IMG/VR virus record: IMGVR_UViG_2609459822_000013
Coordinates: 1 to 64,000 of that record
Origin: a virus
Lineage: Duplodnaviria > Heunggongvirae > Uroviricota > Caudoviricetes
DNA length: 64,000 nucleotides
Direction: 5' to 3' (one strand)
Both the position numbers and the translations under genes were made by a program. This document shows, piece after piece, positions 13,292 through 16,724 of this stretch. Position 1 is the stretch's first letter. The number at the start of each line of letters is the position of its first letter. The notes below the pieces were generated by a model, which saw nothing but the letters and a program-made list of their open reading frames with translations, was not told where the DNA came from and did no database searches.

Positions 13292-13510
13292 ATGGCCCGC
13301 GAATTAATGCTTTATTGTGTTGAGGGTGGCGTAGGTAGTAATGCCTATGTCGCCGGGAAAGGCTATCCAGCCGATGAAGTGCTTTCTAATATGCACTTCC
13401 GGGAAAATGAAAGCCGGGTGTCTGTGTGGAAACGGTGCATTGATGGTATTGAGGTTGTAAGTATCGAACGGTATTTAGGCACGTTTGATTACGGTGTTAT
13501 TGAGGCTTAA
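13292..13510 (+). CDS. hypothetical protein (72 aa)
   Basis: GGAGGA RBS before ATG. Confidence 0.45.
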   Translation: MARELMLYCVEGGVGSNAYVAGKGYPADEVLSNMHFRENESRVSVWKRCIDGIEVVSIERYLGTFDYGVIEA

Positions 13511-13608
13511 TTATGGACGACACATTGTTTTATATGTGCTGTTGCTGGGGTTTTATTGCCTTATGTCTGTTTATCAGGTGGTTTATTGAATACCATATGA
13601 GGTGAGGC

Positions 13609-13803
13609 ATGGAACAGAAAACTGATTATAGAATACCTGATGGCCTAAAATTAGTTGGCATTGGTTTCGGGTGTAGATTTGTATCTGACGCAAAAGGAGC
13701 GATTTATTTAATACGTCTTATTGATGGCGTTCAACATATAAGGAGATTAGGAATTTACATCAAAGCATTCAGAAGAGGTTATTTAAAAACTCATGAAATT
13801 TAA
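13609..13803 (+). CDS. hypothetical protein
   Basis: 64 aa ORF in AT-rich stretch. Confidence 0.35.
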   Translation: MEQKTDYRIPDGLKLVGIGFGCRFVSDAKGAIYLIRLIDGVQHIRRLGIYIKAFRRGYLKTHEI

Positions 13804-13996
13804 ACATTACATGGAATGGAAAATTCCAGAAGCAGCAACAAAGGCAGCGCCAGGAAATGTTTCTGGCGTTTATTTTTATATGGATGGCAAATGGTATTTC
13901 GGCAGCAGGCCGGATCGCTACTATCAAGAAATATGCAAGCCTCACGTATGGGATATTAAAGAGCGCGTGAAAGGCGGGGTAATTGAGGACGTTTAA
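13793..13996 (+). CDS. hypothetical protein
   Basis: 67 aa ORF. Confidence 0.35.
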   Translation: MKFKHYMEWKIPEAATKAAPGNVSGVYFYMDGKWYFGSRPDRYYQEICKPHVWDIKERVKGGVIEDV

Positions 13997-14029
13997 AATG
14001 ATGCGTGCAATTATTGACTTCATTATTGG

Positions 14030-14224
14030 ATGGTTATTTTGTTCTTTTTCGTATTCTCATGTATAGCTACGGTTTTTATTGGAATTTTATGTGGTGTGTC
14101 GTTTGTTACATGGGAGCCACCAGAAATTCCATCACCTGATGATGCGCTTTATATATTAAGGGTTATTATTGCTGTTAGTGTATTTGTTGGGTTCTTTTTC
14201 GCTGATTCTACTGATGATTTATAA
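14030..14224 (+). CDS. small membrane protein (2 TM)
   Basis: 64 aa, two hydrophobic segments. Confidence 0.35.
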   Translation: MVILFFFVFSCIATVFIGILCGVSFVTWEPPEIPSPDDALYILRVIIAVSVFVGFFFADSTDDL

Positions 14225-14225
14225 A

Positions 14226-14459
14226 ATGGCTTTATTTAACCTGTCAGAGCCGCAATTTAACGCCGTAAAGACTGCCGCCCGCGCCGCGCTTTCGGCCTGC
14301 AAAGCGGAAGTAGAAAAGAACGGCTACAGCGATAAAGCCACGCGGCTGATATTAGATAAGCATTATCGCAAGGTCGCCCCGCTAATCAGTATTGAGCGTT
14401 TTGTGTGGTTGGTGGGGTATCTGAATAACCGCTGGGGAACAGATCAGGATTATTTCTAA
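14226..14459 (+). CDS. hypothetical protein (77 aa)
   Basis: ORF with internal ATG start after stop of upstream gene. Confidence 0.4.
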   Translation: MALFNLSEPQFNAVKTAARAALSACKAEVEKNGYSDKATRLILDKHYRKVAPLISIERFVWLVGYLNNRWGTDQDYF

Positions 14460-14468
14460 GGGGGCGTA

Positions 14469-15008
14469 ATGAAAAATGATTACGGCGGCAGCCATACGCC
14501 GAAAGAAATAAAGGACTTATGGCAAACGCCAAAACCCGTTTTTAGAGGAATGGATCGAGAATTCGAGTTCGTCGCGGATGTGGCGGCAAACAAGGCAAAC
14601 GCATTAATACCGCGATATATAACCGAAGAAATGGACACGCTCCATTATCCGTGGGGAGCGGTGGCGATGCCTGGTGAGTATGTCTGGATGAATCCGCCAT
14701 ATTCTAATCCGGGGCCATTCGTTGATAAAGCGGCGCTTGAACACAGCCGAAATCATATCGGATGCGTAATGTTATTGCCCGCTGACATTTCTGTTAGCTG
14801 GTTTATGAACGGCGTGGAGACGGCAAACGAATGCCGATTAATCACGCGCGGGCGGCTGGCGTTTATCAATGCTGCAACAGGGAAACCAGTAAGCGGGAAC
14901 AATAAGGGGAGCTTGTTCCTGATCTGGCATCCACGATGCAGACATGAATGTATTTTCACGCAGATAACACGTAAAGAGCTATATGCAAGAGGTGCAGAAA
15001 ATGAATAA
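14469..15008 (+). CDS. phage N6-adenine DNA methyltransferase
   Basis: 179 aa; catalytic NPPY motif (VWMNPPYSNPG). Confidence 0.7.
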   Translation: MKNDYGGSHTPKEIKDLWQTPKPVFRGMDREFEFVADVAANKANALIPRYITEEMDTLHYPWGAVAMPGEYVWMNPPYSNPGPFVDKAALEHSRNHIGCVMLLPADISVSWFMNGVETANECRLITRGRLAFINAATGKPVSGNNKGSLFLIWHPRCRHECIFTQITRKELYARGAENE

Positions 15009-15321
15009 AGCGGCTGAATTGCTGAGACTTGCGGCTGAAACTATCGAGGCAAGAGGGGAGCAAAACGGATACGATCGAAAAGAAGAAAAATCAGCGCCAA
15101 AAATAGCGGCTATTTTCAACGCTAAGATGAATGCGAATTTAACCCCACTTGATGTATGGGATCTAATGATTTGCCTCAAGGAAGCGCGTTTAGGGGCTAT
15201 TCTCGCTAATGGAACTGATCCGCTCGACACTCTTATAGACCTTATTGCTTATAACGCGCTTAAGGCCGAACAGATATTAGCGTATCGGGAGGAAGAGCTA
15301 AATGAAGATGGTGGCAATTGA
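15001..15321 (+). CDS. hypothetical protein (106 aa)
   Basis: overlaps methyltransferase stop. Confidence 0.45.
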   Translation: MNKAAELLRLAAETIEARGEQNGYDRKEEKSAPKIAAIFNAKMNANLTPLDVWDLMICLKEARLGAILANGTDPLDTLIDLIAYNALKAEQILAYREEELNEDGGN

Positions 15322-15805
15322 CAGGTTATTAGCCTGCGTTTATGTCGCCGTTTTCGTTATCATCAATCTTATTGTTAACCACTGTGGCACGTGGGTAATT
15401 CCGATCACCACGGTAGCCGCCGTGTGTGTCAATATGATGATTCGTGATTTTCTGTTATATGACGGCGGCCTTAAATGGTCGGCTACAACATGCGCCGCCG
15501 CTGGCGCAATCACGGTGCTGATAAATTACGACGCCGGAATGGTGGCGATCGCGTCATTCGTCGCGGTTGTTTCCGGTGCGCTTATTTCTGGCGGCGTTTA
15601 CCGGGTTTTACCTGGTGATTTCGATTCTAAACGCTGGCCTGCAAATATAGCGTCCGCCATTGGCGATGCGTTAATTTTCCCAACGCTATCGTTTATGGCA
15701 TTCATGCCGGAAATATCAGCTATGCAATTCATCTCAAAAATGGCGGCGGTAACGGTGATCACTATCATCATGCGCCGCTACTTTACGTTCGAGGGTAGGA
15801 AATGA
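15302..15805 (+). CDS. integral membrane protein (167 aa, ~5 TM)
   Basis: multiple hydrophobic helices. Confidence 0.5.
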   Translation: MKMVAIDRLLACVYVAVFVIINLIVNHCGTWVIPITTVAAVCVNMMIRDFLLYDGGLKWSATTCAAAGAITVLINYDAGMVAIASFVAVVSGALISGGVYRVLPGDFDSKRWPANIASAIGDALIFPTLSFMAFMPEISAMQFISKMAAVTVITIIMRRYFTFEGRK

Positions 15806-16565
15806 GTGGGCTTAGAAATTGGGTGGTGTGGTCGCTGTACGACGGCAGCGGATACGCCGTTAAAGATTGGGCCGACGCTGGTTATAAATGCTATTGCTTC
15901 AACTATGATGGCGCTAATCACGGCGATTATGAAGGCGTCAAAATCATTCATCCGAACATTGAGTATATCAACGTATGGATTGACAGCCATTTCCTGGTAA
16001 TGTTCTCCCCTGAATTGTCTGTTTATCCAGATCCTGACATTATCCTGGGCTTTCCTCCGTGCGACGATCTTGCGGTGTCCGGCGCTCGCTGGTTTGCTGA
16101 TAAGCGGAAAAAGATCCTTACTTCCAGCAGAAGGCGGCATACAACGCAAAACTGGTAGAAACGCTTGCTGATATGTACCACGTCCCGTGGATGGTGGAAA
16201 ATCCGGTAGGTGCGCTGTCAACGTTATGGCGCAAACCTGATTTTATCTTCAACCCGTGCGCTTACGGTGGCTACCTGCCTGAAGACGACAAACACCCTGC
16301 TTTCCCTGAATACATAGCTGCCCGCGACGCATACACGAAGAAAACTTGTATCTGGTGCGGGAATGGATTTAAGCAGCCGCTATTCCGGTCTGTACCTATG
16401 CCGGATGAATGGGAAGACAGCAAACAGCACGCGAAGTTAGGAGGAAAGTCGAAACGCACTAAGATGATCCGCTCACTAACGCCGCGCGGCTTTGCCCGTG
16501 CTGTATTCTTGGCTAACGACCGGGCCATCACTCGTACTACGCTTAACCGCATTTTACCGGACTAA
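15802..16565 (+). CDS. putative DNA C5-cytosine methyltransferase, frame interrupted (-1 shift required at 16107-16113)
   Basis: ORF 15802-16158 carries a motif IV-like GFPPCDDLAVSGA; ORF 16173-16565 (open from 16104 in the -1 frame) carries ENV-like MVENP and RSLTPRGFARAV; the two frames join across G_AAA_AAG. Confidence 0.45.
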
Positions 16566-16647: not shown

Positions 16648-16724
16648 TTCAAGCAAACAAAATGCTCTTTAAAAATCCGGCAGCGCTGAAATGCGTAGAA
16701 ATCACCTGAAAAGGAGAGAGCATT

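Follow-up and report, generated by a model that had tools for sequence, protein, structure and literature searches.

The window examined here is the whole stretch of 64,000 nucleotides at positions 1 to 64,000 of the Caudoviricetes virus record IMGVR_UViG_2609459822_000013, and the element that it belongs to is a prophage of the mEpimmI group, which comprises Nus-dependent temperate coliphages (PMC11893012). It contains a gene resembling C5-cytosine methyltransferases that is now read as two open reading frames (ORFs), one at 15802-16158 (118 amino acids) and one at 16173-16565 (130 amino acids). Both are present where the initial annotation had placed them, as are the motif strings that it named, GFPPCDDLAVSGA, MVENP and RSLTPRGFARAVF. 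The suggestion that the two ORFs are halves of one gene of about 254 amino acids holds. The -1-corrected translation is identical to the 254 amino acid E. coli protein WP_021549655.1 (strain N25), so the halves are not chance neighbours. This protein was found on 206 contigs. We conclude, with a probability of roughly 0.84, that a gene from a known phage family of small C5-cytosine-methyltransferase-like genes is present in the window as a real loss-of-function allele of recent origin, in which a run of six adenines (A6) has become a run of five (A5). The features of the locus are given in the table below.

Features of the split methyltransferase-like gene and of the genes that precede it
Feature	Position	Strand	Remarks
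5' part of methyltransferase-like gene as now read	15802..16158	+	ATG start, 118 amino acids
A5 run, site of the 1-nucleotide deletion	16108..16112	+	A6 in intact orthologs
3' part of methyltransferase-like gene, -1 frame	16113..16565	+	residues 105-254 and stop
N6-adenine methyltransferase, Dam family	14469..15008	+	intact, first of four-gene block; Pfam Dam E 1.9e-51, TIGR01712 E 2.7e-41
DUF6378 protein	15001..15321	+	second of block; start according to RefSeq orthologs
167 amino acid hydrophobic protein, phrog_4899 (unknown function)	15302..15805	+

The product of the first ORF contains 104 authentic residues, which carry a motif I-like YDGSG and a motif IV-like FPPC. These are followed by a 14-residue out-of-frame tail, ILTSSRRRHTTQNW, and a stop codon, the ORF ending 45 nucleotides past the A5 run. 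In the first frame the codons at the junction (16102-16116) are AAG CGG AAA AAG ATC, and a step back of one base after the AAG at 16111-16113 gives GAT CCT TAC. The corrected junction reads ADKRKK followed by DPYFQQKAAYNAK and onwards to MVENPVG, the joined protein having GFPPCDDLAVSGARWFADKRKK before the junction and DPYFQQKAAYNAKLVETLADMYHVPWMVENPVG after it. The 3' part bears the ENP motif (motif VI-like) and the IRSLTPRG motif. From 16104 onwards the -1 frame stays open until its stop codon at 16565, with 16173 as the position of the first ATG. A stand-alone product of 130 amino acids starting at this ATG was considered and rejected, as no ribosome-binding site is evident there by eye and the product would be without motifs I and IV. 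The ATG of the methyltransferase gene overlaps the stop codon of the upstream gene (ATGA, 15802-15805), and the two genes are apparently translationally coupled.

The split gene was searched for by megablast in phages and in 5426 complete E. coli genomes. It is present in five phages (MagusPhagus, mEp010, mEp013, mEp044 and mEp554) and in 30 of the E. coli genomes, where it is chromosomal every time. The gene is annotated as a single uninterrupted coding sequence for 254-260 amino acids in all three of the phages that were fetched (mEp010, mEp013 and MagusPhagus), and an uninterrupted coding sequence is likewise annotated in E. coli N25, 2017C-4173W12, LP-26-E1-261 and FAH. All ten near orthologs fetched from annotated phages and E. 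coli keep A6, or a G and five A's in the case of mEp013, and nine of the ten have a single ORF of 254-260 amino acids; the tenth, from E. coli KKa019, is split by a different deletion. The ortholog site reads CGG AAA AAA GAT (CGT GAA AAA GAT in mEp013), and in the alignment the window is one A short. Compared with E. coli N25, the window gene differs by the missing A, which appears as a single gap at alignment column 307, and by one synonymous CCT/CCC change and no more; compared with a metagenome locus (L051) the missing A is the sole difference. As the gene shows no other decay, the deletion is taken to be recent.

For 29 of the 30 complete E. coli genomes, match length minus query length is +1 or -5, a value that fits an intact frame. 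The exception is E. coli KKa019, which keeps A6 and has lost a T 15 nucleotides upstream (TGGTTTG to TGGTTG). This is an independent frameshift (NZ_CP091664.1, 1501-2264), and RefSeq lists two hypothetical proteins at that locus. Two unselected pattern scans of IMG/VR and metagenomes, using the pattern GATAARCGGAAAAAN{0,2}GAHCC, which allows A5 to A7, returned 19 loci that are true homologs, and all 19 have A6. In the two largest collections the pattern proved too degenerate; among the scan returns, real homologs accounted for 7 metagenome loci and for none of the 114 genome_contigs loci. Our tallies of A5, A6 and A7 rest on these 19 unselected loci together with look-ups in protein clusters. 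Orthologs with a single ORF span a range from 99.7% down to about 55% identity.

The window gene has the form of a frameshift pseudogene: one indel separates it from near-identical intact orthologs, and each of its halves is colinear with the corresponding part of the intact product. The initial annotation had offered a pseudogene as one of its alternatives, and this is the one that fits. It had also suggested aligning orthologs as a check, and the alignment gave the outcome that it had set against a programmed event, orthologs with one continuous frame and another sequence (A6) in place of the A5 run.

The C5-methyltransferase-like identity of the intact protein, also proposed by the initial annotation, is supported by its predicted fold, by its motifs and by Pfam matches of its relatives; its activity as an enzyme is a prediction from sequence and model. 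A search with the intact protein gave 2372 homologs at E <= 0.001. The best 120 that were listed are mostly 226-262 amino acids long, and those with a named source belong to phages and prophages of enterobacteria (Salmonella, Citrobacter, Klebsiella). The intact protein matches PHROG 757, 'DNA methyltransferase', with an E-value of 1.1e-86. The fused protein has no match in Pfam and none in NCBIfam, and the first ORF alone scores 13.8 bits against PF00145, for which the cut-off is 22. This Pfam family is matched by 10 of 39 aligned homologs, three of which pass the gathering score. The match always lies at profile positions 4-94, which we take to span motifs I-IV; the Pfam threshold is reached solely by the N-terminal 90-100 residues of some homologs.

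Motif I is represented in the window by SLYDGSGY, in which G23 and S24 never vary among the 39 homologs and G25 hardly does, and it aligns with motif I of DNMT3B. Motif IV is FPPCDDL, with P94 and C95 invariant in the same set, and aligns with PCNDL of DNMT3B. Motif VI is MVENPV, with E141, N142 and P143 invariant and a proline in place of the valine of ENV. The residues I-R-S-L-T-x-R-G are also invariant in the family alignment. Neither motif VIII (QxRxR) nor motif X (GNxVP), nor a target-recognition domain, is recognisable by eye in this alignment. The invariant W151-R152 and the IRSLTPRG stretch may be counterparts. Searching the PDB with the single protein sequence gave chance matches only (Kirbac, E about 1), and with the family profile only a sub-significant match to DNMT3B (E 0.24). 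A comparison of folds was needed. The AlphaFold model of a member that is 96% identical is confident, with a predicted local distance difference test score (pLDDT) of 87.9 and a predicted template modelling score (pTM) of 0.87, and among the matches listed by Foldseek the best 50 are without exception to DNMT3-type catalytic domains (best E 2.6e-6). No biochemically characterised member and no solved structure turned up in our searches for the short PHROG 757 family.

Other broken copies of the gene exist in public sequences. The exact 118 amino acid product is present in three Logan assemblies. The copy in SRR1186642 is 100% identical to the window across 6357 nucleotides, including A5. The copy in ERR8007807, a different run, has A5 with nine substitutions relative to the window and no indels. 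The copy in ERR10499148, which corresponds to positions 13358-16493 of the window, has A5 and, within 3 kb, five more indels in homopolymers or dinucleotide repeats; these indels also fragment Dam and neighbouring genes. The intact protein cluster contains 626 sequences, against 33 N-terminal fragments and 27 C-terminal fragments. Among 13 N-terminal fragments that were read, six end in the tail that the loss of one base in the run would give (KRKK-I/N-LTS...), and four in that of a one-base gain (KKRS or EKRS...). The N-terminal fragments that are broken in the tract derive from at least four allelic backgrounds. One form with seven adenines (A7) was seen in assemblies from ENA, Logan and NCBI, on 14 contigs in total.

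In the gene alignment, each of two single-nucleotide polymorphism (SNP) haplotypes is found with A5, with A6 and with A7. Two loci (L005 and L263) are A6/A7 twins, having no mismatches in 3766 nucleotides apart from the tract, whereas a comparison between backgrounds gives about 80. No homopolymer in the gene is longer than the A6 run, and the second longest has 4 nucleotides. The run is therefore the main hot spot for slippage, which would explain why A5 and A7 recur on different backgrounds. Recurrent slipped-strand indels at this hot spot are the simplest reading of that recurrence; short-patch recombination may be another source. The same gene is also broken or truncated at other positions (P0120, P0125, P0132, P0116 and P0004), and together with the KKa019 copy these varied forms fit the erosion of a dispensable gene.

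The loss of one A from the Lys-Lys codons has converted CGG AAA AAA GAT to CGG AAA AAG ATC. Translation therefore stops after the 104 authentic and 14 junk residues, leaving the distal 150 codons, including the ENP motif, unread. The truncated fragment would keep the motif that binds S-adenosylmethionine and the PC motif, and is predicted to be inactive because the rest of the catalytic domain is missing. Where a phage gene is not essential, such a loss may be neutral; it may also be favoured in hosts whose restriction depends on methyl-cytosine, McrBC being an example. Cells that gain a gene for a cytosine DNA methyltransferase are documented to be killed by McrBC (PMC2614495).

Several observations weigh against a genuine loss-of-function allele. 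Homopolymer errors of one base are a common artefact and a consensus error at this run is possible, the Logan assembly that matches the window may stem from the same reads as the window itself, and the A5 copy in ERR10499148 is probably an artefact of error-prone data because of its five other indels. That A5 and A7 recur on backgrounds otherwise identical may also point to switching that is faster than ordinary and possibly reversible, and spontaneous -1 slippage on A_AAG may give a trace of full-length product. The first of these points would have the missing A as an under-call, with A6 and an intact gene in the real genome. We think this unlikely. The independent de novo assembly of SRR1186642 reproduces A5, the copy from the other run has A5 and no other indel, and the many contigs with A7 indicate that length variants of the tract are real in nature. 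High-identity stretches of the window contain no other gene-breaking indel of one nucleotide relative to strain FAH, although at about 97% identity this is a weak test. Some of the split methyltransferase entries in public protein sets are nevertheless likely to be artefacts. The initial annotation had listed recoding as one explanation, a dnaX-type programmed -1 ribosomal frameshift by which the A5 allele would yield both the short N-terminal product and the full-length enzyme. The A-site AAG with a preceding A would let tRNA-Lys re-pair in the -1 frame, and that frame is open across the junction. The zero-frame codons CGG AAA AAG, however, give G_AAA_AAG, which is not a heptamer of the form X_XXY_YYZ; the A-site tetramer A_AAG alone fits. 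The first heptamer position is G, so tandem slippage is not expected, the P-site codon having no cognate re-pairing (GAA against AAA). No Shine-Dalgarno-like motif was found in the 23 nucleotides upstream (16085-16107). No stimulatory hairpin or pseudoknot was found downstream, the 72 nucleotides at 16114-16185 having a folding energy of -11.8 kcal/mol against a mean of -13.0 for shuffled sequences (z +0.45). An A_AAG tetramer without a stimulator gives approximately background frameshifting (0.15%), and reaches 5.6% only with a strong pseudoknot (PMC4066793). The two-frame layout is not conserved, near-identical and distant orthologs both being in frame, and the residues at the site vary over the family (KRKKDP, KREKDP, KAAKDP, KLQKDP and others) with no conserved slippery sequence. 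Alleles with A7, which would require the opposite shift, are at least as common. With uninterrupted orthologs, no heptamer and no stimulators, programmed frameshifting is very improbable, the least probable of the explanations weighed here. Transcriptional slippage was also rejected on general grounds, five A's being too few.

Another proposal of the initial annotation was homopolymer phase variation, in which the locus would resemble a contingency locus: slipped-strand mispairing would toggle the methyltransferase reversibly and at low frequency, on with A6 and off with A5 or A7, and the toggling would be kept because it is useful. The three lengths on each of two haplotypes, the A6/A7 twins that differ by nothing else over 3.7 kb and the tract breaks in at least four backgrounds all agree with this, and phase-variable methyltransferases are known in other bacteria. 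Length variants among otherwise near-identical strains are thus present, as expected for phase variation, but the tract is not of sufficient length. Working cut-offs are 10 or more for poly-A/T and 7 or more for poly-G/C (PMC6321876), far above the six A's of the intact allele and the five of the window. The A6 form is dominant in databases and the only length among the unselected loci, and split forms make up a small share of the database sequences. AAA AAA is the commonest, default encoding of Lys-Lys in E. coli, and the family does not conserve the KK pair, so there is no sign of selection for the tract. The gene also appears to belong to the lytic cycle and to be repressed in the lysogen, so switching would have little phenotype. 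The coexistence of A5, A6 and A7 on identical backgrounds stands, and phase variation holds only in a weak, population-level sense; a tract maintained as a switch is improbable. We give similarly little weight to the idea that the run acts as a low-rate reversible switch that keeps methylating (A6) and non-methylating (A5 or A7) variants in mEpimmI-type prophage populations. If true, the switch would hedge between hosts with classical restriction-modification, where methylation helps, and McrBC-like hosts, where methylation is harmful, and it would be a phage-borne, short-tract analogue in E. coli of a phase-variable methyltransferase.

The split gene closes a tight block of four genes with overlapping ends (14469-16565), which encode Dam, the DUF6378 protein, a membrane protein and the C5-methyltransferase-like protein. 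The initial annotation had described an intact N6-adenine methyltransferase gene next to the split gene. It is intact and lies in the same block, but it is not directly adjacent, as the genes for the DUF6378 protein and the 167 amino acid protein lie between them. The PHROGs label on relatives of the DUF6378 protein, 'phosphofructokinase', looks mis-propagated. The 167 amino acid protein is strongly hydrophobic and probably a multi-pass membrane protein; it has no match in Pfam or NCBIfam and is conserved at the same position in all related prophages that were fetched. The order Dam, DUF6378, membrane protein, methyltransferase and then NinG, RusA and Q is common to mEp010, mEp013, MagusPhagus and the E. 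coli prophages that were fetched.

The methyltransferase gene belongs to the early-right region, where it follows the recombination genes and precedes those for NinG, RusA and a Q-like antiterminator. In mEpimmI phages its place is directly upstream of nutR2; in mEp021 the nutR2 site is found just downstream of a putative cytosine methyltransferase gene, gp32 (PMC11893012). The window has a boxA-like element, TGCTCTTTAA, at 16663-16672, in the gap of 160 nucleotides that follows the methyltransferase gene (compare the rrn boxA, TGCTCTTTAACAA). It is followed by GCGCTGAAATGCG (16663-16690 with the boxA-like element), which has a short stem and an A-rich loop and looks boxB-like. By analogy, the position of these putative elements fits that of nutR2 in mEp021.

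Protection from host restriction is the role commonly proposed for the N6-adenine and C5-cytosine methyltransferases that phages encode (PMC8594841). The intact enzyme would be made from the antiterminated early-right operon during lytic growth, would methylate the DNA of phage progeny and would so evade host restriction. Given such lytic expression, no 5-methylcytosine would be expected in the DNA of the lysogen even with the intact allele. The initial annotation had suggested two modification activities, one of them switchable. Most likely only a single DNA methyltransferase, that of the Dam type, is functional in this phage, and not two.

A loss-of-function allele of this kind is an ordinary finding, a single-base homopolymer deletion in a non-essential prophage gene of a family that annotation pipelines have already named. 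For annotation, the locus should be recorded as one frameshifted methyltransferase pseudogene, and not as two hypothetical proteins or as a recoding event. Of more specialist interest is the family itself, whose members of 227-260 amino acids have a C5-methyltransferase core and no recognisable target-recognition domain. The polymorphism of A5, A6 and A7 on identical backgrounds could also be used to probe the selection that methyl-dependent restriction exerts against phage cytosine methyltransferases.

The intact form of the window product belongs to the short phage family of PHROG 757. Members of this family are named 'DNA cytosine methyltransferase' by RefSeq in E. coli prophages (for example WP_319789774.1), and gp32 of mEp021 is named a putative cytosine methyltransferase; the window copy differs from the family in being broken by the deletion of one nucleotide. 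Canonical C5 enzymes (PF00145; M.HhaI and the catalytic domain of DNMT3A/3B) are much longer than the proteins of the phage family. The phage family is also without a target-recognition domain, QxRxR or GNxVP that can be recognised from sequence, and the window protein is below the Pfam threshold. The frameshift sites of dnaX and of insertion sequences (IS) consist of A_AAA_AAG with a Shine-Dalgarno motif and a hairpin. The window shares with them an AAG after A's and an open -1 frame; it differs in having G as the first base, in the lack of stimulators and of conservation, and in having orthologs that are in frame. The Mod proteins of the phasevarions of Haemophilus, Neisseria and Moraxella are likewise encoded by methyltransferase genes with natural repeat-length variants that switch the frame. 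In contrast to these, the tract in the window gene belongs to a 6-nucleotide poly-A run and not to a long repeat, one length dominates, and the gene is a prophage early gene rather than a host regulator.
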